Shown: positions 15,117-47,493, counted from the first letter of the stretch. The stretch is 64,000 nucleotides of DNA from Bacteroidota bacterium (GCA_024640885.1 JAHEEC010000009.1:2773-66772); one strand, 5' to 3'. The notes: generated by a model not told the origin, from the sequence alone. Program-made: numbers and translations.

Positions 15117-15126
15117 GAGGCGGTCC

Positions 15127-15972: not shown

Positions 15973-15978
15973 GCTGCT

Positions 15979-16743: not shown

Positions 16744-16754
16744 GAAATACCAGA

Positions 16755-32357: not shown

Positions 32358-33287
32358 ATGAGGGAAAAAATATTGTTATTCGTTTTTGCGCTGCTTCTTA
32401 TATCGTGTGAACAGGAGGCCCAGGAGCCTGAATTTTCGAGGGCTCCGGTGGATATCAATGCTTTGCCCTTGCAACTGGGACTGGACAGCGTTCAATCGCT
32501 CAGGACCCTGATCGATCCTGCCTTCCAGGCCGACCTCGAACGAACGATCAATTCCAATGCAAAATGGAAAAGGCTGGTGGAGCAGCGGAGAATGGCAGTT
32601 GGCCTGGTGGATCTGAGCGATCCGTACCACCCCATATACGCCAGGATGAACGGCAATGTGATGATGTATGCCGCCAGCCTGCCCAAGATCGCCATCCTGC
32701 TGGCCACCATGGACGCCCTTGAAAAGGGAGAGCTGGAGGATACACCCGAAATAAGAGAGAAAATGCACCTGATGATCAGCCGTTCCAGCAATACGGCCTC
32801 CACTGAATTGATGGACATGCTGGGGTACGAAAAGATTGAAAGTGTGCTGACCGATCCGAAATATGATCTTTACGATGAAGATTACGGGGGAGGCCTCTGG
32901 GTTGGGAAACGATATGCCAAGACCGGTGAGCGCTATCCTGACCCGCTGAGGGGAATCAGCCACGGTGCAACCGTCACACAGGTATGCCGTTACTATTACC
33001 TGATGGCCTATGGTAAACTGATCAGTTTCGATCGTTCAAAAGAGATGCTAGATTTAATGGCAAATCCCGAACTTCATCATAAATTTGTAGCTAACCTGGA
33101 AAAGATCGCCCCACAAGCCAGGCTTTACAGGAAGTCAGGTACCTGGAAAAACTATCATGCAGATTCTGTGCTGGTATGGGGTCCGGAGCGAAGGTATATC
33201 CTGGTGGCATTGCTGGAAGATACAGACGGCGAGAAGATCCTTCGTGACCTGGTTTTGGTGGCAGATAACCTGCTGAAGACAAGATAA
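32358..33287 (+). CDS. Class-A beta-lactamase-fold serine hydrolase lipoprotein
   Basis: The ATG at 32358 gives lipoprotein signal MREKILLFVFALLLIS|C followed by EQEAQEPE. The ORF-track start at 32304 is TTG and adds a non-signal extension. Motifs are S-x-x-K (AASLPKI), S-x-N (RSSNTAS) and K-S-G (RKSGTW). Confidence 0.65.
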   Translation: MREKILLFVFALLLISCEQEAQEPEFSRAPVDINALPLQLGLDSVQSLRTLIDPAFQADLERTINSNAKWKRLVEQRRMAVGLVDLSDPYHPIYARMNGNVMMYAASLPKIAILLATMDALEKGELEDTPEIREKMHLMISRSSNTASTELMDMLGYEKIESVLTDPKYDLYDEDYGGGLWVGKRYAKTGERYPDPLRGISHGATVTQVCRYYYLMAYGKLISFDRSKEMLDLMANPELHHKFVANLEKIAPQARLYRKSGTWKNYHADSVLVWGPERRYILVALLEDTDGEKILRDLVLVADNLLKTR

Positions 33288-33324
33288 TCAATAGGATGGG
33301 CGGTGACTGAGCCCCCGTGGATCA

Positions 33325-36174
33325 ATGATATTTCAAATAGATAACCTAAAGGATCTATTTCAAAAGACCTTCGATGTTCGGGAAGGAGAATTCCGCAGGG
33401 CTTTTCTGATGCAGCTGAATATATTTCTGCTCATCTCCACACTGCTGATCATCAAACCCACCATTAATTCTCTCTTCCTGACCAATGTGGGCATTGAAAA
33501 ACTGCCCCTTGCCTTTATCCTTGTGGCAGTGGTGGCAGGAATTATCATGTCCTTCTATTCCCGGTGGCTTAGGGCCTATTCCCTGGAGAGGGTCATCCAC
33601 TATACCCTGCTTGTTTCAGTGGGGACCATCACCCTGTTTGCATTGTTGCTCCGGCTTAATTACGTGGAAAAATGGGTACTCTATTTATTCTACGTATGGG
33701 TATCGGTTTTCGGGGTATTGTCAGCGTCACAATTCTGGATTTTTGCAAACATCGTATTCAATGCACGGGAAGCCAAAAGACTGTTTGGCCTTATCGGCAG
33801 CGGAGCCATCGTCGGCGGCATTTTCGGGGGCTACCTCGCCTCTTTGCTTGCCCCGTTGATGGGAAGTGAAAACCTTCTCTTCGTAGGTGCATTGATGCTG
33901 CTCATCGGCATGTTTGTCAACAAGGCCATCTGGAAAAGCCCTGAATTTGCAAGCAAGTCCTTTGGCAGGCAAAAAAGGCGGATGGACAAAATGGCCACGC
34001 GCCCCCTTCGGCTGATCAGGGACTCCAGGCACCTCACATACCTTGCCCTGATTACGGTGTTTGCTGTGCTGGTGGCGCGGCTGGTGGATTACCAGTTCAG
34101 TGCCATCTCTTCAGCCAAAATCGCCGATGAAGATGAACTGACTGCATTTTTTGGGTTCTGGTTCTCCAACTTTAATATAATCTCTCTCCTGATCCAGCTT
34201 TTTCTCACCCGGAGGGTAGTGGGGGTATTCGGTGTGGGGCTCTCCCTCTATATCCTCCCCTTCGGCCTGATGATCGGGGCCCTCGCGGTCTTCTTCGTGC
34301 CCGGGCTCTGGTCAGCCATTTTCATCAAATCTGTGGACGGCAGCCTGAAACAATCCATCAACAAATCGGCAGTGGAGTTGCTTGCCCTTCCACTCCCAAC
34401 CGATGTGAAGAACCAGGCCAAGAGCTTTATCGATGTGGTGGTGGACAGCCTGGCCACCGGACTTAGTGGCATTATTCTGGTGACCCTGGTCAACGGGCTC
34501 GATCTCTCGGCCCGTTTTATCAGCCTCTCCATTCTCCTGATGATTCTCCTATGGTTCTATTTCGCCACAAAGGTGAGAAAGGAGTATATCTTGCTGTTCA
34601 AGTACAAACTCAAACAATTCCGCACAGACAATCAGCGAACGTTGATGGATATCTCCGAAGAATCGGTTTTCGGAGGGCTCCAGAAGGTTCTTGAGACCGG
34701 TACACACAAGCAGATCCTCTATGTGCTCCATAAAACCGATGACATATGGCATGAGAAACTTTTCCAGAGCCTTCGGAACCTCCTGAAACACGATGTCCCT
34801 GAAATAAGGGCCGAAGCATTGAGGAAGTTGTATCACTATAAAACCGAAAATATTGTCAATGAGGTCAACCTGATGGTCCACGACAAAGACTATCACGTGA
34901 AGGTGGCTGCCATTGAATACCTCATAGAACACTCCCCCGGACAAAGAAATGGAATCATCACCAAGTATCTGAACGACAAGGATTACCGGGTTAGTGGCGC
35001 CACTTTATTAAGCCTGGTGAATGAGATCAGGGACAACCCCGAATTGAAGGAGTATTTTCAACTGGAGAACCTGATCCGCGAGAGACTGGGCAGGATTAAG
35101 AAAACCACCGATCCGGAAGAGCTCACCTTCAGGACCGTCAACATCCTGAGGATCATTGGACGGGCCGGGCTACCGAAATTTTATCCTTTCATCCACGAAT
35201 CCTTTCACTCAAAGAACCGGGAAATAGGAAAACAAGCCATCTTATCGGCTGGCCAGACCCTGGACCGGGAATTTATCCCGGTCCTGTTGGGCTTTCTCAG
35301 GGATAAAAAGACAGAGGAGAGTGCCATCCTATCGCTGGCAGGTTTTGAGAATGACCTGTTCGGACATCTGGAAATGTTGTTGAGCGGACCCGAATGGGAT
35401 GCGGTTGTGATCCTTCAGATCCCAAAAGTGCTCGAACGGATCGGAACGCAACAATCTGTGAACTTTCTTTTTACACTGCTTGATTCCGGGGATATGGAGG
35501 TGAGATCCCAGGCCCTAAACTCCTTGATAAAACTGAAAATAGAATACCCCCATCTCCTGTTTAATAAAAAACAGATCATTCATTCCATCCTGGAAGAGGC
35601 GAAACTTCATCTCGACACACTGTCAGCGCTCTATGTACAACAAAAAGGGATGAAACAGGATCATCAGGTCCCCTCCGCAGCAAGTGAAAGTGAAATCTAT
35701 GAGGCAAGGAAGAACCTGATCGCCTTACTGGAGCAGGGTCTGGATGACAACCTGGAGAGGATATTTAAATTATTGGAACTCAAATATCCTCCGGATGAAA
35801 TTGATACAGTGTACCAGAATATCAAGAGTGAAAAATCCGATCTCCGGGTCAACGCCATCGAATTCCTGGACAACCTGCTGGAGGTCAATTTGAAGAAGAT
35901 CCTCATCCCGATCATTGAAACGGTCATGGTCGATACGGTCACCCAGGAGACCCTGAAGAATCTTAACATCAGGATCACCAGCCAGTTCGATTGTCTTGAT
36001 ATGTTGCTCCGCGGAAAGGACGATCAGCTGAAGATCGCCGTATTTAAGCTGGTTTCGACACTCCGGGATAATCAGTATGCCGCCCTTGTCAGGCCATACG
36101 CTGATCACCGCAACCCGAAACTCAGATCATCTGCCCTCCGGACCCTTAAGTTGCTGGAGAACCCGAGCTCTTAA
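33325..36174 (+). CDS. TLC (Npt1/Npt2 ATP:ADP antiporter)-like / MFS-type transporter fused to a C-terminal HEAT-repeat domain
   Basis: 949 aa. The N-terminal ~430 aa has 11-12 hydrophobic segments. Its start (REGEFRRAFLMQLNIFLLISTLLIIKPTINSLFLTNVGIEKLPLAFILVA) resembles nucleotide-transporter (TLC) family N-termini. The C-terminal ~500 aa has at least 8 HEAT-like units (HDVPEIRAEALRKL, HDKDYHVKVAAIEYL, NDKDYRVSGATLLSL, DSGDMEVRSQALNSL, SEKSDLRVNAIEFL, DHRNPKLRSSALRTL). Confidence 0.6.
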   Translation: MIFQIDNLKDLFQKTFDVREGEFRRAFLMQLNIFLLISTLLIIKPTINSLFLTNVGIEKLPLAFILVAVVAGIIMSFYSRWLRAYSLERVIHYTLLVSVGTITLFALLLRLNYVEKWVLYLFYVWVSVFGVLSASQFWIFANIVFNAREAKRLFGLIGSGAIVGGIFGGYLASLLAPLMGSENLLFVGALMLLIGMFVNKAIWKSPEFASKSFGRQKRRMDKMATRPLRLIRDSRHLTYLALITVFAVLVARLVDYQFSAISSAKIADEDELTAFFGFWFSNFNIISLLIQLFLTRRVVGVFGVGLSLYILPFGLMIGALAVFFVPGLWSAIFIKSVDGSLKQSINKSAVELLALPLPTDVKNQAKSFIDVVVDSLATGLSGIILVTLVNGLDLSARFISLSILLMILLWFYFATKVRKEYILLFKYKLKQFRTDNQRTLMDISEESVFGGLQKVLETGTHKQILYVLHKTDDIWHEKLFQSLRNLLKHDVPEIRAEALRKLYHYKTENIVNEVNLMVHDKDYHVKVAAIEYLIEHSPGQRNGIITKYLNDKDYRVSGATLLSLVNEIRDNPELKEYFQLENLIRERLGRIKKTTDPEELTFRTVNILRIIGRAGLPKFYPFIHESFHSKNREIGKQAILSAGQTLDREFIPVLLGFLRDKKTEESAILSLAGFENDLFGHLEMLLSGPEWDAVVILQIPKVLERIGTQQSVNFLFTLLDSGDMEVRSQALNSLIKLKIEYPHLLFNKKQIIHSILEEAKLHLDTLSALYVQQKGMKQDHQVPSAASESEIYEARKNLIALLEQGLDDNLERIFKLLELKYPPDEIDTVYQNIKSEKSDLRVNAIEFLDNLLEVNLKKILIPIIETVMVDTVTQETLKNLNIRITSQFDCLDMLLRGKDDQLKIAVFKLVSTLRDNQYAALVRPYADHRNPKLRSSALRTLKLLENPSS

Positions 36175-36214
36175 CCTTTTTTCAACCAACGGCAGTATAT
36201 CGATCAGGATAACG

Positions 36215-37489
36215 CTATTTTCTTACTGCCTGGTCGATCCTTGCTGCCAGGGCATTATGGTCCGATGATGAATTCTTTTTCAATACATTGGACATCAACG
36301 CCACCATATAGGTGGTTCCATCGGGATGTTCTACGATGATGACCGAATTCATGTAATTACTTACGTTCCCCATGTATTTTGCACAGGTATACCCCTCCTC
36401 CTGCTTGCACTGGTACATACTTCCCGATTTGAAATAGACCGATGCGTTGGTCAGGGACCATGAAGAGGCATACCTGATGCGGGTGGCCGTCATGTAAAGG
36501 AGCCTTTTAATCTCAAGGCTCGATGGTTCATCCACGATCTTTCCCCGTTCAAGGGCCACCAGGTACTTCATCAGTCCATAGGGGCTTGCAGAACTTCCCC
36601 CGGAGCCGGGAACGATCTTTTTGGCCTCTCCCGTAAACAAGCTTCCAAGTTTCCACTCATCCCTGGTAATCCCGGCCTCATTGACAGGAGTGTTCACCAC
36701 TTCAACGGCCAGTTCTGAGAGCTGGCTCCGTGATATTTTGCTGAAATAGAGGTCGGCTTCCTCCTCGGAAAGGGAGGTGTAGCCCGATCCGAAAACGTGC
36801 ATCAGGATGGTTTCTCTCCAAATAACGTTGGCCGCACCATTATTACTGGCCGACAGCATGTGATCGACCCATTCATAGAGTGAAAAGATATCACTCTCCC
36901 TTACTGTCCTTCTGACCATTTTTTTGTCCACGGTATCAAAGACCGGGACCACATGTTCGTCATAGACGGCCCACTTCCCCCCCTTTACCAATCTGTTCTT
37001 CAGCAACTCCTGCCTCTTTTCAAAGGACTCCGGGTAGATCTTCTGCAATTCATTGAACAGGCCGGCCACCACCACCAGCTTTCCCACACTGCCCGGTTGA
37101 AATTGTTTCTTCTCCTGTGTACAGGCATACCTCATGGGACGACCGGGAGTAACATCCATTACAGTCATTGAATAACTCTCATGCAGGTTGGGGAAAATTG
37201 CATCGATGGATTTCTGCAGTTTCGGATCCACCGCAGGAAATGTACTGAGGCTGTCCCCCCTGCTTCCGGTCAGCTTCAGTTTTATATCAACGGTCGGGAG
37301 GAAGGCCCCTTTGGCAGGGAGGTTGGCCTTGATCTCGCCTTTCATGACAAGCTGCAGGTAAAGCAGCCGCCTGATCCCGGTCCAGGCATATCCATCAATG
37401 GGATAGGCCAGGAGACCCCGGGGGACCACCATTCCCACAATAAACACCAACAGGAGGATCCTCTCCCTGATTTTCAACATCTTTCTCAT
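36215..37489 (-). CDS. Class-A beta-lactamase-fold serine hydrolase, secreted
   Basis: The ATG at 37489 gives signal MRKMLKIRERILLLVFIVGMVVPRGLLA|YP. The ORF-track start at 37519 is TTG and would overlap the upstream gene. Motifs are S-x-x-K (PGSVGKLVV), S-x-N (SASNNGA) and K-S-G (FKSGSM). It starts 10 nt after the PEP-utilizer-like gene. Confidence 0.6.
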   Translation of the reverse strand: MRKMLKIRERILLLVFIVGMVVPRGLLAYPIDGYAWTGIRRLLYLQLVMKGEIKANLPAKGAFLPTVDIKLKLTGSRGDSLSTFPAVDPKLQKSIDAIFPNLHESYSMTVMDVTPGRPMRYACTQEKKQFQPGSVGKLVVVAGLFNELQKIYPESFEKRQELLKNRLVKGGKWAVYDEHVVPVFDTVDKKMVRRTVRESDIFSLYEWVDHMLSASNNGAANVIWRETILMHVFGSGYTSLSEEEADLYFSKISRSQLSELAVEVVNTPVNEAGITRDEWKLGSLFTGEAKKIVPGSGGSSASPYGLMKYLVALERGKIVDEPSSLEIKRLLYMTATRIRYASSWSLTNASVYFKSGSMYQCKQEEGYTCAKYMGNVSNYMNSVIIVEHPDGTTYMVALMSNVLKKNSSSDHNALAARIDQAVRK

Positions 37490-37499
37490 CTGAATTGTT

Positions 37500-40418
37500 T
37501 CATGGTATATTTTGTTCAATTTCCTTCTGGATGGAGATCATCATCTGATCGCGATACTCCGGATCCAGGGAATTCAGGTACTCCGATGCTGCCGCATTTT
37601 TGTTTTCCACAAAGGGTCGCACCTGGAAGAGCCACAGCTTGTTCTCTTTGAATCCCAGCTCAATATCAAAGGGCCCTGATGTCTCTATACCCGGTGCACG
37701 GGGCAACAGCTCCCTGACCTGCCCGGCAATCTCCCTGAGGGATTCCAGGTTCTCCTGGTTCAGCACCCGGGTTTCAAAGGTGGCAAATTCTCTTTTGGAG
37801 CCTCCTGTCTCCGGTAAACTGATAAAAGAGGGTTCCCGGGCAGGGGAGAGCAGGACCTGGCCGCCGTTGTGTTCCAGCAACCAGGATTCAGCCGCCTGAC
37901 CCTCCACAGCCCCGCCGGCTCCCCGGTTGAATGCGACAGTCAGGTCTTTTTCATCCTGGTTGCTGATGCCCCTGGTTACCATCACCCCCGAATAATCCAC
38001 ATCCACCGAGGGAATGACCAGGATCGACGGAAATACATTTTCAGGGTTCAACAGGTACTGCTGGCGCCACTTGTAGCTTCGTTCAGTGTATGGAGATGCC
38101 CATACATCCCTGATGCCCTGGGCTATTGCGCCGGTATCCACCACATTGAACAGGGTCAGGTTCAGTCCCGCCCCGGTGAAATCTTTCAGGTCCTCCATGT
38201 TTGTATCACTCCTGAGAAAGACCGGAATTTGACCCATTTCCTTTCCGAAAACATCAAGGAAGCTGTTCCTGAGGTCATCCATGAACTCTTCCCTGAACCT
38301 GATCTGGCTGATGGATTTCCTGAAAACTGCCATCTCTGCCAGCAGGTAAGCATCCGTTTCATCCTTTCCGGCCCCTTCCCTGATCATCTGGTCGGCCCTG
38401 TCGAAAACCTGGTTCAGGTATTGCCAGTAGGAGAGTTCCTGCCCCGGCATCATCTGGTCCAGGTGCATCCTGAAGATCCCGAAGGGGATGACAATCCCCT
38501 CGACCACATGCTCCGGGAACATCCGCTTCAACTGCCCAAGGTTGGCAGCCTTTGGACCGCAAATGATTCCTGAGGATCGCGCGGAAACATGCCGGAGATT
38601 GACAATGGTTTTTTGTTCAAGGTCAATTTTATGCACCGGCACAGAGACTTTTTCCTGGGCCCGCTTGCGGATCTCAATGAGCTTTTGCTCCTCACGGGTA
38701 ATCTGATCACGGGGTTTCAGGATCACTGAACCTCCCGGGGAAACCGCATAAAACACAGTCTCTCCCGAAAATTCTTTTAAATCTTCCAGGTTTTGTGGTG
38801 TGATGACCGCATTGGGAATCCCCAGGTTGCGGGCCAGCAGCTGTACATGGGAAACCATGTTCCCTTCTGATACTGTGGCGATACCGGCCACCGGTTTCAG
38901 GTCAGACGGCGGTTTATCGAAAATATAGATCTTCTCCCTGTCCACTTCCATATTTTCTGCCATACCGGTCACCACCACAAGTTCGCCGGTGGCGTATCCG
39001 GGGTTCAATCCCCTGATGGAGTTCTGCCCGCGAATCCCCATGACATGGTTGGATGCTGGCCTGTATTCCAGCATTTGATCTGCAAGATTCTCCACCACGG
39101 TTCCGGTGTATAGCAAAAGGGAGGATCTGACCCTGTCGTCAAGGAATCCATAGGCCATCGGTTCAAATCCACCAAAGAGGTCCATCACACTGCCGTAATG
39201 GGCCCTGAACATACCAATGCCCCACTCGGTCATCCTCCGTCCCGTTTCAAAGAAACGCACCAGGAATTCAAGGGAGACCTCCTCTTCCGCAGGGACCATG
39301 AGCGGGGAAGCGACCTGATCCCATTCCCACAACTCCATATAGCCACAGCCGGCAGCAGCCATCCCAAGGTTCCGGATGGTTTCAAGATGATCCCCGATGG
39401 TGTTCATCCCGTACCCCGACAACTCCCGTAACAATATATCTTCCAGTGCAATGGACAGATCCATTGCGGCAAGCCTCGCTTTCGGACCCGGGAGGGAGAG
39501 GATCCCCTGCCTCAGCTCAAGAAGCATGCGGGATAATCCGGCAATTCTCTCGCTGCCATCCCTGAGGTTGTTGTATTCTGAGATAAACATCGCCACAGAT
39601 TCCCTCAGTTCAGCATCTTTTGGGAACTGGTTCACAAAAGCTTTCAGTGCATTTATATTGACCGGCTTATACAATGTTTTCATGTCACTGATCAGCTTAT
39701 CAAACATCTTCAGCTGCTCCCCGCCAAGCTCCTTTCTGTATTTCTCCCTGAACAGTTCAACCTTGCCAATATCCGTGGCATCCGGTTGTCCATGTATTTT
39801 GACCCTGATATCAAGAAATGCGGGTAAGGTATCGGAGATAATCTTGGAGACTGCACGTATTTCCTGGGTCAGGTTGTTGTCCCCCTGATGCGGAAGGTCC
39901 CTCAGGGACTGCCGGATCAGAAAATAACTTTCTTCGATGAACCGGTTATCTGCCAATACCCATTGATAAAACTCCACTCCCCATGTCTCCTCATCTTCCG
40001 CCTGGAAGGCTCCCCTGTAAAACTGTGCTCTTCTCAGCACCCAGCCATTGTCAATGGCCTGAAGGTATTTCTCCAGCTGGTACTGCTTCAGGCGGGAATG
40101 ATTGAATTCAGGATCCCAGAAATCAGGGTATGGGGTTGTGGAGAGGATCTGCCCGAGAAAAACATGGTTGCTCTGGGAGAGGGCAACCACCTCATCCTTA
40201 TGTCTTGCCCTTTGCACTCCACCTGGTTCGGGACATCGCTCCTGCGGGGGAAGGATCGTTCCATCCTTACAGTACCACCGGATCTCTTTATAGGGTCCCT
40301 TGATATCTTTCTTATATGCTTCAACCCTTCTTGTAATTTCTTCATTACCAACTTTTTGTGCATGAAGCGGAAAAATCAGCAGGTAAAAAAGGAGTACCAG
40401 GGAAATTGTTGATCTCAT
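37500..40418 (-). CDS. Signal-peptide-bearing PEP-utilizer (swivel His) + PPDK_N ATP-grasp phosphotransferase with permuted domain order
   Basis: 972 aa.
- aa 1-20 form a Sec signal, MRSTISLVLLFYLLIFPLHA|Q.
- aa 21 to about 465 form an unassigned domain containing one Cys pair, YCKDGTILPPQERC.
- aa about 465-545 form the PEP-utilizer mobile domain, with GNMVSHVQLLARNLGIPNAV (His524, nt 38847-38849; compare PPDK GGMTSHAAVVAR).
- aa about 600-940 form the PEP/pyruvate-binding ATP-grasp (CGPKAANLGQL, VFLRSDTNMEDL..GAGLNLT, ILVIPSVDVDYSGVMVT, FDIELGF..KLWLFQVRP). Confidence 0.75.
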   Translation of the reverse strand: MRSTISLVLLFYLLIFPLHAQKVGNEEITRRVEAYKKDIKGPYKEIRWYCKDGTILPPQERCPEPGGVQRARHKDEVVALSQSNHVFLGQILSTTPYPDFWDPEFNHSRLKQYQLEKYLQAIDNGWVLRRAQFYRGAFQAEDEETWGVEFYQWVLADNRFIEESYFLIRQSLRDLPHQGDNNLTQEIRAVSKIISDTLPAFLDIRVKIHGQPDATDIGKVELFREKYRKELGGEQLKMFDKLISDMKTLYKPVNINALKAFVNQFPKDAELRESVAMFISEYNNLRDGSERIAGLSRMLLELRQGILSLPGPKARLAAMDLSIALEDILLRELSGYGMNTIGDHLETIRNLGMAAAGCGYMELWEWDQVASPLMVPAEEEVSLEFLVRFFETGRRMTEWGIGMFRAHYGSVMDLFGGFEPMAYGFLDDRVRSSLLLYTGTVVENLADQMLEYRPASNHVMGIRGQNSIRGLNPGYATGELVVVTGMAENMEVDREKIYIFDKPPSDLKPVAGIATVSEGNMVSHVQLLARNLGIPNAVITPQNLEDLKEFSGETVFYAVSPGGSVILKPRDQITREEQKLIEIRKRAQEKVSVPVHKIDLEQKTIVNLRHVSARSSGIICGPKAANLGQLKRMFPEHVVEGIVIPFGIFRMHLDQMMPGQELSYWQYLNQVFDRADQMIREGAGKDETDAYLLAEMAVFRKSISQIRFREEFMDDLRNSFLDVFGKEMGQIPVFLRSDTNMEDLKDFTGAGLNLTLFNVVDTGAIAQGIRDVWASPYTERSYKWRQQYLLNPENVFPSILVIPSVDVDYSGVMVTRGISNQDEKDLTVAFNRGAGGAVEGQAAESWLLEHNGGQVLLSPAREPSFISLPETGGSKREFATFETRVLNQENLESLREIAGQVRELLPRAPGIETSGPFDIELGFKENKLWLFQVRPFVENKNAAASEYLNSLDPEYRDQMMISIQKEIEQNIP

Positions 40419-40524
40419 CTATTCAGGGTTAAAAAAAAGTCACATCATATCTGGTGCAAATTAGCCACTTTTTAGGTAGCATCAAATCCCATTTATGATG
40501 TGACATCCCAGAGACAGGTCCGGT

Positions 40525-41394
40525 TTACTTTAACCGGATCTGAATACTCCCCATATATTGTTTCCCGTCATATACATTGATCCGGTACAACCCCCTGGTC
40601 AATTTCTCCTCGGGTTTGTAAGTGAGCTCCGTTCTTTTTGCAAGCGTTTTCCCTGCAATCGTCCCTCCCGAAAGACTGGCCATCAGATCACTGTCGCGTT
40701 CCTCTACCCTGACCGAGGCGTACTCGTTGTCCACACTTGAGATCTCCATCCCTTCAGGGGTCAGGATCTTAAAGTAAAGATTCTCTCCAAACCCTACAGG
40801 CACGTCAAAACTGGTTACAATTGTATTTGCCCTGCGGGCCGCCACGGTCGGTCTGCTGTTTTTTCCTTTCAGGGCCTCAATCTGGTAATTATCGGCCAAC
40901 ATCGACTCCAGCATGGCATTTTTCAGGGCCAGGAATTCATTGTTTGTTTTCATGGACTCAAGCTGTTCACCTAATGCGCTGTATTCAGTCAGGAGTTGAT
41001 CATAGTTCGCATTCAGTGCATCAATTTCCCCTTCCATTGTGATCCGCAAAGCTTCGAGTTCCGCATTCTTCTTTTTCAGTTCATTCATGGAAGCTTTTTC
41101 TGCTATCAGGGTTTTGATTTCAAGCTCTTTTTGTGCCAGCTTTGCACTGGTTTCCGCTACAATCTTATCCAAATTGGCATTTTTTCCCTTCAAAGAATTA
41201 AGCTGTTTTTGAAATTCAACCATTGATCTATCAAGGTCAAGTTTTTCAGAAAGCAGAGCCTCAGCCCTGATTTTCTCCCTGGCAAGTTTATTCTTCTGAG
41301 AACTGTTGTTGTAAACAAACAGCCCTGCAAAAATCAAAGCAATCACCGACACCACTGCGAGAATGGTCCGGTTTCTGGTACTTTTTGTTTCCAT
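40525..41394 (-). CDS. Membrane-anchored coiled-coil protein, function unknown
   Basis: 289 aa. An N-terminal TM segment (ILAVVSVIALIFAGLFVY) is followed by ~150 aa of heptad-rich K/E/L sequence and a ~100-aa beta-rich C-terminal domain. Confidence 0.5.
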   Translation of the reverse strand: METKSTRNRTILAVVSVIALIFAGLFVYNNSSQKNKLAREKIRAEALLSEKLDLDRSMVEFQKQLNSLKGKNANLDKIVAETSAKLAQKELEIKTLIAEKASMNELKKKNAELEALRITMEGEIDALNANYDQLLTEYSALGEQLESMKTNNEFLALKNAMLESMLADNYQIEALKGKNSRPTVAARRANTIVTSFDVPVGFGENLYFKILTPEGMEISSVDNEYASVRVEERDSDLMASLSGGTIAGKTLAKRTELTYKPEEKLTRGLYRINVYDGKQYMGSIQIRLK

Positions 41395-41515: not shown

Positions 41516-42892
41516 TCAGGAAAGGTCAATCGCCGGGAAAGAAATTGCTGCCTGGGTTCCCTGATTTATGACTGAACTGATGGTGATTTTGCCGTCATGT
41601 AAAGTGACTATTTTATTAACCAGCGAAAGTCCGATCCCATGGCCCTTGATCCCAATGGCATTTTTTGCCCGATAGAAAGGCTGAAAGATCATATTGATCT
41701 CTTCTTCAGGGATCCCGATCCCTTTGTCCGAAATCTGAATGATCACCTGGTGGTTCTGATAACTGAAGAATACTTCTGCAGTATGATCCTCGGAATATTT
41801 GCATCCATTTTCCATGAGGTTGCCCAGGGCGGTTTTCAGGAGGAGCTCGTTCCCCCTGATGACGAGATTGTGTTCATTGTCGATCTCCTCAGAAAAATGA
41901 ACCGGCACCCTGTTCTGATCATGCATCTTCAGGATCTCCTTCCTTGCGTGCCATAGCACTTCATCTATGCGGACGGGGCCAAAATCGGCGGGGGGAGTGT
42001 CAGAATTGGTCTGGGCAAGAAGCAGGAGCCGATCTGAAATTTGATTCAGGTTCTTCATGTCATCCAGCAAGGAAAGGATGGTTTTCCTGTATTCTTCATT
42101 GCTCCTGGCCTTTAAAAGTATCACCTCCAGCTGTCCGGTGATCACTGTCAGCGGGGTCCGCAATTCATGGGAAGCGTTGGCAATAAAATTCTTCTGCGTC
42201 TCAAATGCGATCTCAAGCCTGTCAAGCATCCTGTTGAATGTTTGGGCAAGCTGGCTGATCTCATCCTTTCCAATTCCCTCATAAACCCGGGCATGCAGGT
42301 TGGACACTTCAATGGCTTCCACCTGTGACATGATGTTGGAAATGGGATCCAGGGCACGTGTTGCAAAAATCCTGCCCGAGAAGAAGACGATGATCAGGGA
42401 AACAAAAAAAACAATGAGCAGAATAAGTCTCAAACGCACCAACTTATTCAGTCCGAAAATATCAGTAGCAGCGGCGAAAACGACGAACCTGTCATACTGG
42501 CCGGTATAAAACTGACCCACGATTTCATAGGGCTTCTGTTTCATTCTGATCTCCCCCTGGAGCCTCACGTCATCGATGGACTCCTGGGTAATTTCCAGCA
42601 ACTGGTACTCATCGGTACTGTAAATGACCTGGTTCTGATAATCGTAAATGACAATCTTTTCGTTTGGCAGGCTCAATGGGCTGTTCAATTCAATTCTTTT
42701 AAGCAGGTCTGCGTCAATCTCATCGAATTCTATCAACAGCTGGGCTGCCATGGTTGCCTTGCTGCCAAGGCGATCAAAAAAGTCATCCTTCCTGGTTCGG
42801 GAAAAGGATAAATAGATGGTGAGGGAGGAAAAAAAGAGGATCACCGCCACGATGGCGATGAACTGGTACAACAACTTTTTTCTGATCTCCAT
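41516..42892 (-). CDS. Two-component sensor histidine kinase (periplasmic sensor, HAMP, HisKA, HATPase_c)
   Basis: 458 aa with two TM segments flanking a ~135-aa periplasmic domain. It has the H-box NASHELRTPLTVI, N-box NLMENGCKYS and G-boxes ISDKGIGIP / GHGIGLSLV. Its start overlaps the RR stop (TAATG). Confidence 0.9.
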   Translation of the reverse strand: MEIRKKLLYQFIAIVAVILFFSSLTIYLSFSRTRKDDFFDRLGSKATMAAQLLIEFDEIDADLLKRIELNSPLSLPNEKIVIYDYQNQVIYSTDEYQLLEITQESIDDVRLQGEIRMKQKPYEIVGQFYTGQYDRFVVFAAATDIFGLNKLVRLRLILLIVFFVSLIIVFFSGRIFATRALDPISNIMSQVEAIEVSNLHARVYEGIGKDEISQLAQTFNRMLDRLEIAFETQKNFIANASHELRTPLTVITGQLEVILLKARSNEEYRKTILSLLDDMKNLNQISDRLLLLAQTNSDTPPADFGPVRIDEVLWHARKEILKMHDQNRVPVHFSEEIDNEHNLVIRGNELLLKTALGNLMENGCKYSEDHTAEVFFSYQNHQVIIQISDKGIGIPEEEINMIFQPFYRAKNAIGIKGHGIGLSLVNKIVTLHDGKITISSVINQGTQAAISFPAIDLS

Positions 42893-43569
42893 TATGGCTC
42901 ATTAATGCAATACCCCAAACCGATCCTGGTCTGGATCAGCTTGGTCTCAAAATCCTTATCAATTTTCTTTCTTAAAATATTGATATACACATCAATGACA
43001 TTTGTGCCTGTATCAAAGGTGATGTCCCACACTTTTTCTGCAATTTCAGAACGGGAGACCACCCTTCCCTGGTTTTTCATCAGAAATTCAAGCAGGGCGA
43101 ATTCCTTTGAGGTGAGTTCAATCTGTTTATCCCCCCTTTTGGCCAGTTTTTTATCAAGATCAAGTTCAAGGTCCGCTATTTTGATCCGCGAAGATGTCTG
43201 ATGAAGACCCGTAGAGCGTTTGGTGAGTGCCTTGATCCTGGCCAGTAGTTCGGCAAACTCAAAGGGTTTTACCAGGTAATCGTCTGAACCTGCATCAAAT
43301 CCGGCCACTTTATCTTCGGTGGTCCCCAGTGCCGTAAGCATCAGTACCGGGGTCTGCACCCCTGATTGCCGGATCCGGTTACAAAGCTCCAACCCGTTGA
43401 TATAGGGCAGGATCACATCGAGGATGAGCAGGTCATAATTCCCCTTTATCGCGAGCCTTTCTCCCATTTGCCCGTCATAGGCAACTTCGGTTTCATATCC
43501 CTGCTCCTCCAGTCCTTTCTTGATGAAATCCACCACTTTGGGTTCATCTTCCACAAGGAGGATTTTCAT
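42892..43569 (-). CDS. OmpR-family response regulator transcription factor
   Basis: 225 aa. The receiver has MKILLVEDE...DLLILDVILP (phospho-Asp)...LTALG...KPF. A winged-helix output domain follows (LTSKEFALLEFLMKNQGRVVSRSEIAEKVW...IQTRIGLGY). Confidence 0.95.
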   Translation of the reverse strand: MKILLVEDEPKVVDFIKKGLEEQGYETEVAYDGQMGERLAIKGNYDLLILDVILPYINGLELCNRIRQSGVQTPVLMLTALGTTEDKVAGFDAGSDDYLVKPFEFAELLARIKALTKRSTGLHQTSSRIKIADLELDLDKKLAKRGDKQIELTSKEFALLEFLMKNQGRVVSRSEIAEKVWDITFDTGTNVIDVYINILRKKIDKDFETKLIQTRIGLGYCINEP

Positions 43570-43612
43570 AACACCTTTTTATCACTCAAAAGTAGGGAAA
43601 AATTATTACTGC

Positions 43613-44527
43613 TCACTCTCCCATGGCCTGGGCAGGTTCCAGCAGCTGAAAGAACTGTTCCAGCTCGGGGAGGATGATGATCTCGGTCCTCCTGTTCACC
43701 TGCCTACCCTGGGGTGATTGATTGCTATCCTTGGGCACATATTCAGACCTTCCGCCTGCCGTCATTCTTTCAGGGGAAATCCCGTGCTTCGTCTGTAAAT
43801 TCCGGACCACTGAGGTAGCCCTCTTCACACTTAAATCCCAGTTGTCCACCATACATCCTGTCGAGATCGGGACATTATCCGTATGACCCTCCACCAGGAT
43901 TTCAAGTTCATTGTAGTCATTTAAAACCCTGGCGATCTTTCCAAGCACACCTTCAGCAAGGGGGCTTATTTCAGCGCTTCCTGATTTAAACAGGAGTTTA
44001 TCGGAAATGGAAATGTAGACCACCCCTTTCTTCACTTCGATGTTGATATCCTCATCCCCCACATCAATAAGGGAACGTTTCAGTTTCATGACAAGGGCCA
44101 GGTTCAGGGAATCCCTCTGACGGATCGAGGAGGTCAGGTCTTTAATGTACTTGTTTTGTTCGTTCAAAGCCTCCAGGGATTTTTTGATGCTTTCGGCCCC
44201 GGACTTGCTCACCACCGACAGGTCAGCCAGCCTGTCCAGGAGGTTGGTATTGGTATTTCTGAAATATTCCAGCTGTTGCCCCTGGAAGGCCACGCTGTTC
44301 CTTTCATTCTCCAGCTGCATCTCCAGCTGCATAATTGTACTGGAAAGCTCTTCGTTCTCCTTTCCCAGCAAATTCTTACTCTCCAGGCATTTCGCCAGTT
44401 CATTCATACTTTCCTGGGATCTGTATTGCTCCTGGGTCAGCATTTTTTTACTTACACAGGATGAAAACATCAGTCCTGAAAGAAGCAGGATTATGATTGC
44501 CCGGTTCACGGGAAGTAGTCTGGACAT
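43613..44527 (-). CDS. OmpA-family lipoprotein with N-terminal coiled coil
   Basis: The ATG at 44527 gives MSRLLPVNRAIIILLLSGLMFSS|C. A coiled-coil segment is followed by the OmpA_C-like domain (FKSGSAEISP...ILVEGHTDNVPI...NWDLSVKRATSVVRNL...GRQVNRRTEIIILP). Confidence 0.85.
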   Translation of the reverse strand: MSRLLPVNRAIIILLLSGLMFSSCVSKKMLTQEQYRSQESMNELAKCLESKNLLGKENEELSSTIMQLEMQLENERNSVAFQGQQLEYFRNTNTNLLDRLADLSVVSKSGAESIKKSLEALNEQNKYIKDLTSSIRQRDSLNLALVMKLKRSLIDVGDEDINIEVKKGVVYISISDKLLFKSGSAEISPLAEGVLGKIARVLNDYNELEILVEGHTDNVPISTGCMVDNWDLSVKRATSVVRNLQTKHGISPERMTAGGRSEYVPKDSNQSPQGRQVNRRTEIIILPELEQFFQLLEPAQAMGE

Positions 44528-44594
44528 TATCTGTAGAATTAAAGTTAATGCCACAAAATTACCGGCAGGCAATTAAGAAATGATGAAGACGCTA

Positions 44595-44639
44595 TTAAAA
44601 CTAAATTAAAAAGGGCAATAAAAGGAGGATGGCCCTTTT
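44595..44639 (-). terminator. Candidate rho-independent terminator after the HMA gene
   Basis: The minus-strand RNA has stem AAAAGGGC (44632-44639), a 15-nt loop and GCCCUUUU (44609-44616). It is followed by the U-rich UAAUUUAGUUUUAAU and begins 26 nt after the stop at 44665. Confidence 0.45.
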
Positions 44640-44664
44640 GAGTCACCCTCCTTTACACTTGTTC

Positions 44665-45036
44665 CTAATGCTGGTGCATAGTGGATCCGTGGGCACTTTC
44701 CGTGCTCATCCTTTCATAATGGCAGCAACCGGGCAGGTCGTCATAGACCTCATCACTGGCTTTATGCAATCTGGTATCATGACCGGCATTGGCGATGGCC
44801 ATATGTACCTGGTGAATATCGACCTTGGGGTCAAAGGTGACCTCGATCATCTTGGTCTCCTTATCCCAGTTGGCAGCAGAAACACCATCCACAGATTTTG
44901 CGGCCTTTTCGATCCGTGTTTTGCACATCCCGCAGTTTCCGGCCACTTCGAACGATTCCTTTTTCTCATTTTGCCCCATTACTGTGGAGAGTCCCAACAC
45001 CAGTATGGTAATTGCGCTTAAGATTCTTGTTTTCAT
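44665..45036 (-). CDS. Secreted heavy-metal-associated (HMA) domain protein
   Basis: 123 aa with a signal peptide. The HMA fold has the metal motif AGNCGMCKTRIEKAAKSVDGV. The C-terminal tail has CCHYE and several His/Met residues. Confidence 0.8.
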   Translation of the reverse strand: MKTRILSAITILVLGLSTVMGQNEKKESFEVAGNCGMCKTRIEKAAKSVDGVSAANWDKETKMIEVTFDPKVDIHQVHMAIANAGHDTRLHKASDEVYDDLPGCCHYERMSTESAHGSTMHQH

Positions 45037-45054
45037 GTGTATTGATTTTAATGG

Positions 45055-45600
45055 TTATTTATTTTTTATTCCATGGAAATTCATGTAAAAGGGTGTGGTC
45101 TGATCCATCATATGGAATGCGTAAGAAAAGGTTCCATCTACCCTGTTAAATCCGCCAAAATGCAAGTCCCCATCGTGGTGCTCATCCTTCATATGATGCG
45201 TCCATTCCGTTTCCCCGGTCCTCATATCGCCCATCATACCTCCCGACATGTGCCCTTCCCCGTAACTGTGGCCGTAAGTATGCTCGAAATCAGCACCCGT
45301 CAGGCATACCATCACACTGTCATGATTTTCAAAATAGTAAAGCATCAGCGTGGTGTCTATTTCACTCCCGTAACAGTGTACCTCAACCTGGCTGCTGTCC
45401 ATCACAGAAACTACTGCAATGCCATCATCCGTGTCATGGATCTCTGCAGATGTGGAGGTTAGCGATGCCGATTTCGAGAAGGATCCAGTATAAACGCCTT
45501 CAATGTCATAGATTGACTGATCCTTTGAATTGTCGCAGGATGACACAGCCAGGAACATGGCCAGAGGCACAAATCCAATAAAAAACCCTGTTGTTCTCAT
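45055..45600 (-). CDS. His/Met-rich periplasmic lipoprotein (putative Cu-binding), unknown family
   Basis: 181 aa with lipobox LAVSS|C. The C-terminal half reads HTYGHSYGEGHMSGGMMGDMRTGETEWTHHMKDEHHDGDLHFGG. It lies between cusB-like and the HMA gene on the same strand. Confidence 0.55.
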   Translation of the reverse strand: MRTTGFFIGFVPLAMFLAVSSCDNSKDQSIYDIEGVYTGSFSKSASLTSTSAEIHDTDDGIAVVSVMDSSQVEVHCYGSEIDTTLMLYYFENHDSVMVCLTGADFEHTYGHSYGEGHMSGGMMGDMRTGETEWTHHMKDEHHDGDLHFGGFNRVDGTFSYAFHMMDQTTPFYMNFHGIKNK

Positions 45601-45675
45601 CGTATTTATATTTATTGTTATTATTAGAACTTCATTTATATAAACTGAAATGCACTTTTTTAGGCTGTATTCGCT

Positions 45676-47493
45676 TTAAAACTCCAGGGTCTCCCTGGTC
45701 TCTCCGCACCCCAGCATGGCATCCCCGAAATATGGATTTTTAATCTCCTTGAACGTGCTCAGCCAGAAAGCCCCTGTATCGCCGTTGGCCATAGGACAAT
45801 ACTGGTAGTAAACCGTTCCACGGGATAATCCAAACACTTTGACTGTGTTGTAAAAAGTGCTGTTGAAAGCCGCGAACTCCCGCCTCTGGGATTCTATTTC
45901 CCCGGTACCGGCTATCCTATCAACGGATCCCTTTAATGATTCAACCTGCTTCATCCATTTCATGTGGGCCTCTCCTTTCAGCAGTCCCATATCCACCCTG
46001 TCCAGATTCTCTCCTAATTTTTTTGCAAGCCTGCCAACCTCGCCGGCATCCGATAAGACAAAAGCATCTTTCATCGGGATATAGGCGTCATAGACCCGTT
46101 GCAACTGGGCCTTAAACTCGTCATTCACCCTGGTTGGATCCTTCTGGGCATCGCCGGCGGGCTCCATGGCCATCGAGCCATGGTCATGCCCGGTAGAAAC
46201 GCGCCCACCCTGGGGATTCATCATGCTTGTCTTTCCTTCCAGCTGTGCGGAGGCGTCAATCTTAAAGACTCCGTTCACAGCAATCTCTTCACCCGAAGTG
46301 AGTCCCTCTGCCACCACATAGAAATCACCGGCCTCCGGTCCCAGGGTGATCTCCCGGTAAAGAAATGTAGGTGAACTCCTGCCGGGGACCTTCACATAGA
46401 CCACCGCACGTTTACCTGTCCAGAGGATGGAGGATTTGGGGATCAACAACTGGTTTGCTCCGGCAGCCATCCTTGAGTGCAGCTTTCCCCTGGCAAACAT
46501 TTCCGGCTTCAGGAGGCCGCTTCCATTGGGCAGTTCGATCCTCACCCCTGCTACCCGTGTGCCGGGATCGATATACGGATCAATATATGTGACCCTCCCT
46601 TCATAGGATTTGCCCGGCAGGGACTGGAATGTCAGCTCAATGAGATCCCCTTTGCTGATCCATGGAAGGTCGCTTTCATAGGCATCGAAAACCACCCATA
46701 CACCTGAGAGGTCTGTTACCTGGAAAAGGGATGATCCTTCCTGCACATAGTCACCCTGGGCCACATGCCTCTCCATGATGGTCCCTGTGATGGGGGAGTG
46801 AATATCGAAATAGAGCATGGGTTCACCCCCCTGCTCGATGGATTCGATCTGCTCATCGGAGAGGTCCCACAGTTTGAGTTTGGTCCTGGCCGCCTTGTAA
46901 AGCGACGGCCTTGTCTCCCTGAGCACCATTGCTTCAATAAGCTCCTGCTGGGCCGAGACCAGGTCAGGTGAATAGATGGTTGCCAGTTTTTCCCCTTTGT
47001 TTACCTGCTGCCCCGTAAAGTTCACGAACAGTTTTTCGATCCGGCCCCCGAACCTGGCAGTGATCTCTGCCATATTCCGCTCATCGGCCTGAACCTTTCC
47101 CTGCAGGGATACAACCCTTTGGGGTGCTCCCGGGCCGACGATCATGGTCTGGATCTCTGCCAGTTTCGCAGCCGACTCGCTCATCATAATTTCATTGGGG
47201 TCCGCCCCTGAACTGGAAGACTCCAGGGAGGTGACCGGTATAAGGTCCATGGCACAAATTGGACACTTGCCCGGTTTATCCTGCCTGATCTGGGGATGCA
47301 TGGAACAGGTCCATACGGAGGGTGTTTCCGATGGATGGTCATGCCCATCCACCACCTCCGCCTGGTTGATCTGGGCTTTCTCCTCCTTTGAAGGATGGAA
47401 GAACAACCATCCCAGGAACAATCCCGTGACCAGGACCACAAGCATTGACCTGTAATTCTCTTTGATGCTTTGAATTGTGTTTTTCATGATCAT
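45676..47493 (-). CDS. cusB: CusB-like RND adaptor with N-terminal heavy-metal-binding domain and C-terminal DUF3347-like domain
   Basis: 605 aa.
- The N-terminus has WTCSMHPQIRQDKPGKCPICAMDL, the Cys4 HMBD motif seen on Bacteroidetes/other CusB and P-type ATPases.
- The central part has MFP blocks (VQADERNMAEITARFGGRIEKLFVNFTGQQVNKGEKLATIYSPDLV, IHSPITGTIMERHVAQGDYV, LLIPKSSIL, VVYVK).
- The C-terminal ~140 aa (LQRVYDAYIPMKDAFVLSD...YYQYCPMANGDTGAFWLS) resembles DUF3347. Confidence 0.85.
   Translation of the reverse strand: MIMKNTIQSIKENYRSMLVVLVTGLFLGWLFFHPSKEEKAQINQAEVVDGHDHPSETPSVWTCSMHPQIRQDKPGKCPICAMDLIPVTSLESSSSGADPNEIMMSESAAKLAEIQTMIVGPGAPQRVVSLQGKVQADERNMAEITARFGGRIEKLFVNFTGQQVNKGEKLATIYSPDLVSAQQELIEAMVLRETRPSLYKAARTKLKLWDLSDEQIESIEQGGEPMLYFDIHSPITGTIMERHVAQGDYVQEGSSLFQVTDLSGVWVVFDAYESDLPWISKGDLIELTFQSLPGKSYEGRVTYIDPYIDPGTRVAGVRIELPNGSGLLKPEMFARGKLHSRMAAGANQLLIPKSSILWTGKRAVVYVKVPGRSSPTFLYREITLGPEAGDFYVVAEGLTSGEEIAVNGVFKIDASAQLEGKTSMMNPQGGRVSTGHDHGSMAMEPAGDAQKDPTRVNDEFKAQLQRVYDAYIPMKDAFVLSDAGEVGRLAKKLGENLDRVDMGLLKGEAHMKWMKQVESLKGSVDRIAGTGEIESQRREFAAFNSTFYNTVKVFGLSRGTVYYQYCPMANGDTGAFWLSTFKEIKNPYFGDAMLGCGETRETLEF

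Follow-up and report, generated by a model that had tools for sequence, protein, structure and literature searches.

An export-signalled phosphohistidine dikinase candidate linked to an NTT-family transporter and two serine enzymes in Bacteroidota

The subject of this work is a gene at positions 37500-40418, on the minus strand, of a 64,000-nucleotide (nt) stretch of a Bacteroidota bacterium genome (GCA_024640885.1 JAHEEC010000009.1:2773-66772). The whole stretch is called the window below, and positions are counted from its first letter. The product, of 972 amino acids (aa), is in our judgement quite probably an exported and active dikinase, as its conserved catalytic residues and the export signature of its homologues suggest. 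Its gene belongs to a four-gene module, spanning 32358-40418 in the window, together with a transporter of the NTT (TLC, ATP/ADP-translocase) family and two exported serine enzymes of the beta-lactamase/PBP fold. This cluster is the most informative feature of the locus, and it was absent from the first-pass annotation of the region. The reading that we put forward, to which its sequence evidence gives about an even chance, places the enzyme in the periplasm as an "X, water dikinase" that draws on NTT-exported ATP and belongs to a four-gene envelope module. The features on which the argument turns are the following.

32358-33287, plus strand: BL2b, a lipoprotein serine enzyme of the beta-lactamase/PBP fold, about 309 aa, with lipobox LLISC (Pfam Beta-lactamase2, E 2e-16)
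33325-36174, plus strand: NTT (TLC, ATP/ADP-translocase family) transporter fused to C-terminal HEAT repeats, 949 aa (Pfam TLC, HEAT_2)
36215-37489, minus strand: BL2a, an exported serine enzyme of the beta-lactamase/PBP fold, about 420 aa, with an ambiguous start (TTG 37519, ATG 37489 or ATG 37480)
37500-40418, minus strand: predicted exported His-swivel/ATP-grasp dikinase, 972 aa, with ATG start and stop codon 37500-37502 (translation of the reading frame)
37503-38618, minus strand: C-terminal ATP-grasp nucleotide-binding domain (PPDK_N) of the dikinase, aa 601-972 (Pfam, Foldseek, invariant residues)
38619-39023, minus strand: phosphohistidine swivel domain of the dikinase, aa 466-600, the His524 codon being 38847-38849 (family profile against 8a8e, conserved motif)
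39024-40358, minus strand: N-terminal domain of the dikinase, aa 21-465, presumed acceptor-binding module (AlphaFold2 secondary structure: a Cys50/Cys62 beta-hairpin, then about 22 helices)
40359-40418, minus strand: predicted Sec signal peptide of the dikinase for signal peptidase I, aa 1-20, with cleavage between HA and QK leaving Gln21 at +1 (homologue statistics, Q-rule)
40457-40463, minus strand: TAATTTG, lying 38 nt before the dikinase ATG and fitting TAnnTTTG, the -7 promoter motif of Bacteroidetes

The first-pass annotation had marked an open reading frame (ORF) at 37500-40418 and given no strand. The ORF is indeed there, on the minus strand; a reading on the plus strand was rejected, its translation being full of stops. 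The sequences quoted in that annotation are all found in the translation: the N-terminus MRSTISLVLLFYLLIFPLHA followed by QK, the His motif GNMVSHVQLLAR at aa 519-530 with His524 in it, and, where the ATP-grasp had been placed, CGPKAANLGQL (aa 620-630) and FQVRPF (aa 931-936). Its outline of the protein, a signal peptide followed by an unmatched N-terminal domain, a swivel-His domain and a C-terminal ATP-grasp, agrees with Pfam and with the family profile. An AlphaFold2 model made with the family alignment (predicted local distance difference test score, pLDDT, 80.7; predicted template modelling score, pTM, 0.77) begins with a signal helix; a short beta motif at Cys50/Cys62 comes next and then, as far as aa 450, about 22 helices. 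The His domain (aa 469-585) is rich in beta structure, and the ATP-grasp (aa 600-950) is alpha/beta. Relatives of the dikinase occur in at least 589 GTDB species and include a close and a distant clade, the latter being only 26-33% identical. As judged by conservation and profile E-values, the domain signals are far above chance.

Is the protein a dikinase? Pfam PPDK_N (PF01326) matches aa 621-946 with an E-value of 1.1e-21 and 78 bits against a cut-off of 27, so the C-terminus does prove to be an ATP-grasp of this type, as first proposed. When the dikinase model was compared with the PDB by Foldseek, the matches were confined to the ATP-grasp; the best was the ATP-binding domain of rifampicin phosphotransferase (RPH; 5hv6, template modelling (TM) score 0.84-0.85, E about 1e-12), and phosphoenolpyruvate (PEP) synthase 2ols and PPDK 1kbl were matched as well. 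In NCBIfam, aa 602-943 fall on the N-terminal 340 residues of the PpsA and RPH models. The His domain gives a weaker signal in a single sequence, where PEP-utilizers (PF00391) matches aa 507-547 at E 0.004 and 17.1 bits, under its cut-off of 23.1; PF00391 is recorded for many members of the distant clade. A profile of 51 family sequences, compared with PEP synthase 8a8e, places aa 470-549 on the His domain (residues 385-467) and aa 690-946 on the ATP-grasp (residues 106-369). The His part thus precedes the ATP-grasp in our protein, which means that the domain order is reversed with respect to PpsA. In the same alignment the SH of the dikinase sits on the TSH of PEP synthase, so that His524 falls on the catalytic His and lies in a PEP-utilizer-type domain, as the first-pass annotation had claimed.

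The residues expected to carry the reaction are conserved over great distances. His524 does not vary among the 51 close sequences, nor in a 40-sequence alignment that joins both clades at only 30-33% identity, and the motif around it, EGNxxSHVQLLARNLGIPN, is almost invariant in the close and the distant clade. Also invariant over the 40 sequences are K623 of the GPK motif, R736, S737, E742 and D743 of the RSDTNxED motif, and D918, E920, Q932 and R934. The family profile aligns D918/E920 and Q932/R934 with the DIE...QSR motif of PEP synthase, and we take these four residues to be the equivalents of the PPDK Mg/ATP ligands D321, E323, Q335 and R337. An alignment to PpsA, PPDK and RPH had been proposed as a check; that of the His and ATP-grasp domains to PEP synthase confirmed the catalytic residues and the His. 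By these invariant catalytic residues the protein looks like a catalytically competent phosphohistidine dikinase of the PpsA/PPDK/GWD/RPH superfamily.

The N-terminal domain is of another kind. Modelled alone, it has a pLDDT of 70.8, and in the fold search of the PDB by Foldseek aa 21-465 reached a best E of 0.12 with a TM score of about 0.12. The matches were to helical-repeat folds such as the ALPK1 N-domain and importins (E at least 0.12, TM about 0.12-0.15), and they were rejected as homologues and regarded as noise. No Pfam family was found in this domain in the dikinase and 22 homologues (23 members), and nothing was matched in PDB sequences or NCBIfam. In a scan of 1.84 billion representative proteins the domain was found in 475 clusters at 50% identity. 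Nearly all of the complete matches are proteins of about 970 aa with the domain at about residues 25-480; the domain is therefore bound to one architecture. Its invariant residues across the clades (G41, P42, W48, G53, Q69, W126, Y134, R135, G136, Q139, E143, R205, H209 and P212) fall into three motifs, all of them in the first 210 residues, namely RGPYxxIRWxCxDG...C...GGxQ, DxGWxxRxAxxYRGAxQxEDEE and LRxKIHGxP. The least confident loops of the AlphaFold model (aa 40-44, 129-138 and 208-211; about 39786-40301 of the window, minus strand) coincide with the top conserved motifs RGPY, YRGAxQ and KIHG. In a model, loops that are both conserved and of low confidence would be typical of flexible substrate-binding loops. 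By analogy the domain is presumed to be the acceptor-substrate-binding module, and as such it would define a new acceptor-binding domain.

The cysteines of the protein are Cys50, Cys62 and Cys358 in the N-terminal domain and Cys620 in the ATP-grasp. The close clade never varies at Cys50 or Cys62, and taken overall both are conserved to at least 90%. The "single Cys pair" of the first-pass annotation is thus right as to the pair and its conservation and wrong as to "single", the domain also holding Cys358, which is not conserved.

There is a further question, whether the enzyme leaves the cytoplasm. Its N-terminus has a positive n-region, a hydrophobic h-region, small residues at -1 and -3 and Gln at +1. 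Each of the 120 closest homologues with a complete N-terminus opens with a basic n-region, then has a hydrophobic core and, after it, a small residue and Gln. When close and distant homologues are counted separately, the hydrophobic core is found in 112/112 and 108/110 and K/R ahead of the core in 109/112 and 99/110, while a small residue followed by Gln after the core is found in 104/112 (93%) of the close homologues and in 31/110 (28%) of the distant ones. Gln at +1 of signal peptidase I substrates is a Bacteroidetes-specific feature, the Q-rule (PMC5837995). Since the small-Gln signature is restricted to a lineage, it is strong indirect evidence of real cleavage. There is no alternative in-frame Met within the first 150 codons, and the homologues keep the hydrophobic segment and do not bypass it by a conserved downstream start. 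The Sec export proposed earlier is therefore well founded, with a +1 Gln that tracks the Q-rule and partner proteins that carry predicted export signals. Every named host of the dikinase relatives is diderm, and from the sequence we infer a periplasmic location.

Which genes accompany the dikinase? To this end, 80 Bacteroidota loci were compared by tblastn of the window neighbours and by de novo clustering of all 1090 ORFs. The 53 loci in which each flank is 9 kb or longer are called well-flanked. Only four families are conserved among the 1090 ORFs, as listed here with the next commonest one.

Dikinase family: 80/80 loci
Beta-lactamase2-like protein of about 420 aa (BL2a), directly downstream: 77/80 loci
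NTT-HEAT transporter of about 940 aa: 69/80 loci
Beta-lactamase2-like protein of about 307 aa (BL2b): 61/80 loci
Next commonest neighbour family: at most 9/80 loci

All four genes are present in 50 of the 53 well-flanked loci, and the same compact convergent order is seen in 59 of the 63 loci that have all four. No other conserved neighbour was found in the 80 loci, mobile-element genes included. BL2a lies next to the dikinase in 79/80 loci, and in 53/53 of the well-flanked ones, and the two probably share an operon. On the other strand, BL2b is upstream of the NTT gene in the same orientation, with a gap of 38 nt. The motif TAnnTTTG, which we take to be the Bacteroidetes -7 promoter box, lies no more than 120 nt ahead of the dikinase start in 27/79 loci versus 4.8% of random windows. 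A scan of the cluster for sigma-70 promoters and terminators gave counts at chance level, and a PADLOC search for anti-phage defence genes returned generic HEAT repeats only. Just upstream of the dikinase in the window, at 40525-41394 on the minus strand, lies a gene for a protein of 289 aa with one N-terminal transmembrane segment, a long coiled coil and weak DUF8428/DUF8429 matches; it is confined to the nearest relatives, being seen in 1/80 loci and in two contigs with an identical dikinase.

The transporter matches Pfam TLC (PF03219) with E 2.7e-15 and 56.6 bits against a cut-off of 21, matches HEAT_2 as well, and has about 12 transmembrane segments. Compared with structures of the Arabidopsis plastid ATP/ADP carrier, it gives E 2.8e-11 for 9j3j (aa 66-418) and 1.2e-7 for 9j3n, and it shares with 9j3j the motifs FWxFAN...EAK...G.GA and K..K..IDVV. 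On these comparisons it is a real NTT homologue. The NTT-HEAT form is found in 51 of the 53 well-flanked loci. By our own reading of the loops under the positive-inside rule, the HEAT domain would be cytoplasmic, and the repeats could regulate the transporter. Among the NTTs of free-living bacteria, HEAT fusions had already been recognised as a clade, to which no function was assigned (Major, Embley and Williams 2017, PMC5381601). The 949-aa protein of the window has the same architecture as the proteins of that survey, in which Bacteroidetes are among the sampled taxa (Table 1, 43 sequences). The survey reported no link with an exported dikinase. In the present loci it is the NTT core to which the dikinase is tied, because modules of the distant clade use NTTs without HEAT repeats. 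A literature search for an NTT-dikinase link, a periplasmic dikinase or a bacterial GWD-like enzyme found nothing relevant.

For the two serine enzymes, the Pfam family is Beta-lactamase2 (PF13354), which BL2a matches with E 2.6e-7. BL2a has a signal peptide, then a conserved mature YPIDGY, and homologues of BL2b have a signal peptide or a lipobox. The motifs SxxK, SxN and KSG occur in this order and are invariant in 31 BL2a sequences and in 31 BL2b sequences; in BL2b the active-site residues are S107xxK110, S143xN145 and K259SG. By their sequences BL2a and BL2b are two new families of PBP-fold enzymes. Both are very remote from solved structures (best E 0.8 and 0.01), and for this reason activity on beta-lactams is doubtful.

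Does the association hold outside Bacteroidota? Dikinases of the distant clade come from Desulfobacterota, Myxococcota, Gammaproteobacteria and Tectomicrobia, and seven loci from Desulfobacterota, Myxococcota and Gammaproteobacteria and from metagenome-assembled genomes (MAGs) were examined for context. At least one Beta-lactamase2 gene is present in 7/7 of them. A TLC gene is present in 5/7, those of Desulfonema, a Gammaproteobacteria bacterium and three MAGs, and the Myxococcota locus has instead an MFS-like transporter fused to a cyclic nucleotide (cNMP)-binding domain. Transporter and serine enzyme thus occur together in 6/7 loci, only Desulfocurvibacter africanus being without a linked transporter. 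In these loci the gene order is shuffled and the HEAT repeats are absent, and the association of dikinase, transporter and serine enzyme outlives both changes. Some extra neighbours were seen as well. One distant-clade module has a 5'-nucleotidase C-domain protein nearby (L086:15639-17210); another (L087:1-2599 and 13938-17452) has two tandem TLC paralogues and, a few kb upstream, two further genes, one for a Peptidase_S13 protein (PBP4-type) and one of the class C beta-lactamase family. These may point to nucleotide turnover and cell-wall peptidase chemistry.

How does the enzyme compare with known dikinases? The permuted domain order stressed in the first-pass annotation is real with respect to PpsA, PPDK and RPH, but it is not a novelty, since plant glucan, water dikinase (GWD) has it (PMC13553574). 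In the 2026 structure of potato GWD1, an all-alpha central domain of about 444 aa and 20 helices, with no clear PDB equivalent, is joined by a four-residue link to a pivoting His domain, and the C-terminal ATP domain is homologous to those of PPDK and RPH (PMC13553574). The core of our dikinase has the same order as GWD1 (EC 2.7.9.4) and PWD, that is, a helical acceptor domain, His and a C-terminal PPDK_N. In both enzymes the central domain is without a clear PDB equivalent, and the His motif SHV...ARN is common to both. On the other side, our protein has no CBM45 or CBM20 modules (no Pfam match in aa 1-465 of the dikinase and 22 homologues); it has a bacterial Sec signal and not a transit peptide, the signal peptide being followed directly by the helical domain; and nothing points to alpha-glucan as its acceptor. 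It looks like the core of GWD stripped of the two CBM45 modules and fitted with a signal peptide. GWD works in the plastid, whose ATP has to come in through an NTT in darkness or where the tissue is not green. GWD1_pHisD (PF22973), Ig_N_CWD1 and DUF7067 gave no Pfam match on the dikinase at E<=1, while PF22973 is recorded on real GWD fragments (single-exon, retrieved by a GWD motif). A six-frame search of two algal GWD loci gave E 2.5e-5 to 1e-3, on downstream exons, with the hidden Markov model (HMM) of the ATP domain and only about 0.03 with that of the His domain; the HMM of the N-terminal domain found nothing upstream of the His exons at these two loci, where intron-split genes lower the sensitivity. 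The GWD structures 9HA9 and 9QVI are absent from the PDB sequence and fold matches of the N-terminal domain, and they may post-date the libraries. Membership of the dikinase in the GWD family is thus not supported by these comparisons.

With RPH and the Bacillus phenolic phosphate synthetase (BsPPS) the dikinase shares a logic of three modules, an ATP-grasp, a helical substrate domain and a swivel His, and presumably the transfer of phosphate to a hydroxyl; RPH is also the best structural match of its ATP-grasp. The order in RPH is ATP-grasp, substrate domain, His, whereas here it is substrate domain, His, ATP-grasp, which amounts to a circular permutation; moreover RPH is cytoplasmic, and the NCBIfam RPH model gives 45.2 bits against a cut-off of 999. 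A circularly permuted RPH with a shared substrate domain was considered. The order fits, but the fold of the N-terminal domain is unmatched to the rifampin-binding domain, and the idea was rejected. PpsA and PPDK have the homologous ATP-grasp and His domains, and the DxE...QxR motif and the GxK Lys, whose roles are established from PPDK, are conserved in the dikinase. The differences from them are predicted export, the reversed order and the want of a PEP/pyruvate TIM-barrel: PEP-utilizers_C (PF02896) gave nothing on the dikinase at E<=1, and only about 25 residues follow the ATP-grasp. A PEP synthase (EC 2.7.9.2) was accordingly rejected, with NCBIfam equivalogs scoring 89.4 bits against 883 and 85.1 against 598, no TIM-barrel and the order reversed. 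Public records name members of the family (P0026, P0086, P0108, P0274 and P0370) 'phosphoenolpyruvate synthase'. This is a systematic misannotation, because the PEP/pyruvate domain is absent and the scores are about 10% of the cut-offs. A last comparison is with Lig E, a periplasm-targeted ATP-dependent ligase for which the question of periplasmic ATP is already open. It too is a signal-bearing ATP-dependent enzyme of Gram-negative bacteria and raises the same question, but its fold and chemistry are unrelated, it has no dedicated linked transporter, and its ATP is proposed to come from an extracellular pool.

By analogy with PpsA, PPDK, GWD and RPH, a scenario for the periplasmic "X, water dikinase" may be given. 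The C-terminal ATP-grasp would bind Mg-ATP; the beta-phosphate would pass to His524 and the gamma-phosphate to water or inorganic phosphate (Pi); the His domain would then swing to the N-terminal domain and phosphorylate the bound acceptor, giving AMP, Pi and the phosphorylated acceptor. The NTT in the inner membrane would move ATP out of the cytoplasm, taking AMP or ADP (and perhaps Pi) in return, and so fuel the dikinase; that it does supply the ATP we hold to be slightly short of an even bet. The likeliest acceptor would be a periplasmic or envelope molecule with a hydroxyl or carboxyl on which both serine enzymes also act. A coupling of the dikinase with these enzymes, physical or functional, may exist, and the two PBP-fold partners would hint, speculatively, at an acceptor in the envelope that also undergoes acyl-enzyme chemistry. 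The most general form of the scenario, which we offer only tentatively, is that many free-living diderms keep a dedicated periplasmic ATP supply, in which an NTT exports ATP and an exported dikinase phosphorylates an envelope or periplasmic molecule together with two PBP-like serine enzymes.

Several points weigh against this scenario. The periplasm is classically held to be devoid of ATP, and the localisation of the dikinase rests on sequence rules. Characterised NTTs also carry NAD and other nucleotides, and neither substrate nor direction is fixed by homology. A dikinase releases AMP, whereas classical NTTs swap ATP for ADP (+Pi). TIGR00769 is only a distant match to the transporter (42 bits against a cut-off of 387), so the substrate of the NTT is not readable from its sequence. 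A linked NTT is missing in 2 of the 53 well-flanked Bacteroidota loci and in Desulfocurvibacter africanus. Searches of Pfam, PDB sequences and folds, and the algal GWD loci gave no relative of the N-terminal domain that would hint at the acceptor. Lastly, the NTT-HEAT clade is also found in cyanobacteria and chlamydiae (PMC5381601).

What else could the module do? One possibility is detoxification or antibiotic inactivation in the periplasm, the dikinase phosphorylating a hydroxyl of a xenobiotic, the serine enzymes hydrolysing the same or related compounds, and the transporter supplying ATP or removing products. RPH structures (5hv1, 5hv6) are indeed the best structural matches of the ATP domain, RPH and BsPPS do phosphorylate hydroxyls of small molecules, and both partners belong to Pfam Beta-lactamase2 with intact catalytic motifs. 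We nevertheless regard it as unlikely. At least 589 species keep the module by vertical descent, its order is stable, and no mobile-element genes are conserved beside it, all of which fits housekeeping better than resistance. What is more, no RPH chain is among the fold matches of the N-terminal domain, the RPH model of NCBIfam gives 45 bits where 999 are required, and the serine enzymes are very remote from solved beta-lactamases, with the E-values of 0.8 and 0.01 given above. Another possibility is that the flow is reversed and serves salvage: the NTT would import nucleotides, and the dikinase would either run backwards or act on a nucleotide-related substrate. It might, for example, use an energy-rich phospho-compound to rebuild ATP from AMP and Pi, or prepare scavenged extracellular nucleotides for uptake. 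Reactions of the PPDK type are reversible, and a 5'-nucleotidase-domain gene lies near one distant-clade module. With every characterised NTT, moreover, nucleotides are brought into the compartment in which the carrier resides (PMC5381601). Yet this scheme leaves no role for two serine enzymes, its 5'-nucleotidase neighbour was seen once only, and no plausible high-energy phospho-donor of the periplasm is known; in an energised free-living cell, moreover, an inside-negative potential favours ATP export by an electrogenic ATP4-/ADP3- exchange, as in mitochondria. We consider salvage improbable.

One may also doubt the export itself and take the hydrophobic N-terminus for an anchor at the cytoplasmic face or an artefact of the start, the protein then being an ordinary cytoplasmic PEP-synthase-like dikinase with incidental linkage. 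ATP-dependent enzymes are normally cytoplasmic, the databases call members of the family 'phosphoenolpyruvate synthase', and the Lys at +2 after the predicted cleavage is not ideal for a Sec substrate. A wrong start is hard to reconcile with a frame that offers no other Met in its first 150 codons, and a mere anchor with a hydrophobic segment that about 98-100% of homologues keep, preceded by K/R, and with a phylum-specific +1 Gln that tracks the Q-rule. The conserved Cys pair and the export of the partner proteins also speak for the periplasm. As to the PEP synthase, its PEP/pyruvate TIM-barrel is absent and PpsA scores stay at about 10% of the cut-offs, and a linkage that holds over phyla despite shuffled gene order does not look incidental. 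This explanation is highly improbable.

Other observations were made elsewhere in the window. At 22479-26864 (minus strand) a single ORF of 1461 aa combines a full AcrB-type RND pump (ACR_tran, aa 5-1035) with an outer-membrane efflux protein (OEP) domain (aa 1299-1457). Either the two are fused in an uncommon RND-OMF protein, or a frameshift or stop was missed. The gene at 28013-31012 (plus strand) encodes 999 aa that resemble a GH10 xylanase and include Ig domains of the CHU_C-associated kind; its Por_Secre_tail match is sub-threshold (23.3 bits against 27), a hint of a C-terminal sorting domain for type IX secretion. Taken with the Q-rule and the promoter motif, this speaks for a Bacteroidota origin of the window. 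The region 41516-52533 (minus strand) codes for a HAMP/HisKA kinase with its OmpR-type regulator as a two-component system, for a protein of the OmpA family and for a probable heavy-metal RND efflux set, made up of a membrane-fusion protein (heavy-metal-binding domain, DUF3347), an OEP protein and an ACR_tran protein of 1268 aa; none of these genes is conserved beside the dikinase in the 80 loci. At 58598-60427 (plus strand) there is an ORF of 609 aa without a Pfam family at E<=1e-5.

What would the four-gene module mean for the biology of these bacteria? The ATP-free periplasm of the textbooks is a constraint used to explain the Lol, Lpt, BAM and LpxT systems of the envelope. The dikinase family, which is by its sequence ATP-competent and export-signalled, is present in hundreds of species and is linked to NTTs, makes this constraint directly testable. 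The work also flags a widespread misannotation as 'PEP synthase'. The N-terminal domain and the two PBP-fold families may mark an unknown envelope modification. For the NTT and NTT-HEAT transporters of free-living bacteria, whose role has been a question since 2017, the scenario is a first concrete hypothesis of function, and if it is true they would have their first functional assignment. No phosphorylation pathway of the Gram-negative periplasm that runs on ATP would, in that case, have been known before with an energy supply line of its own.

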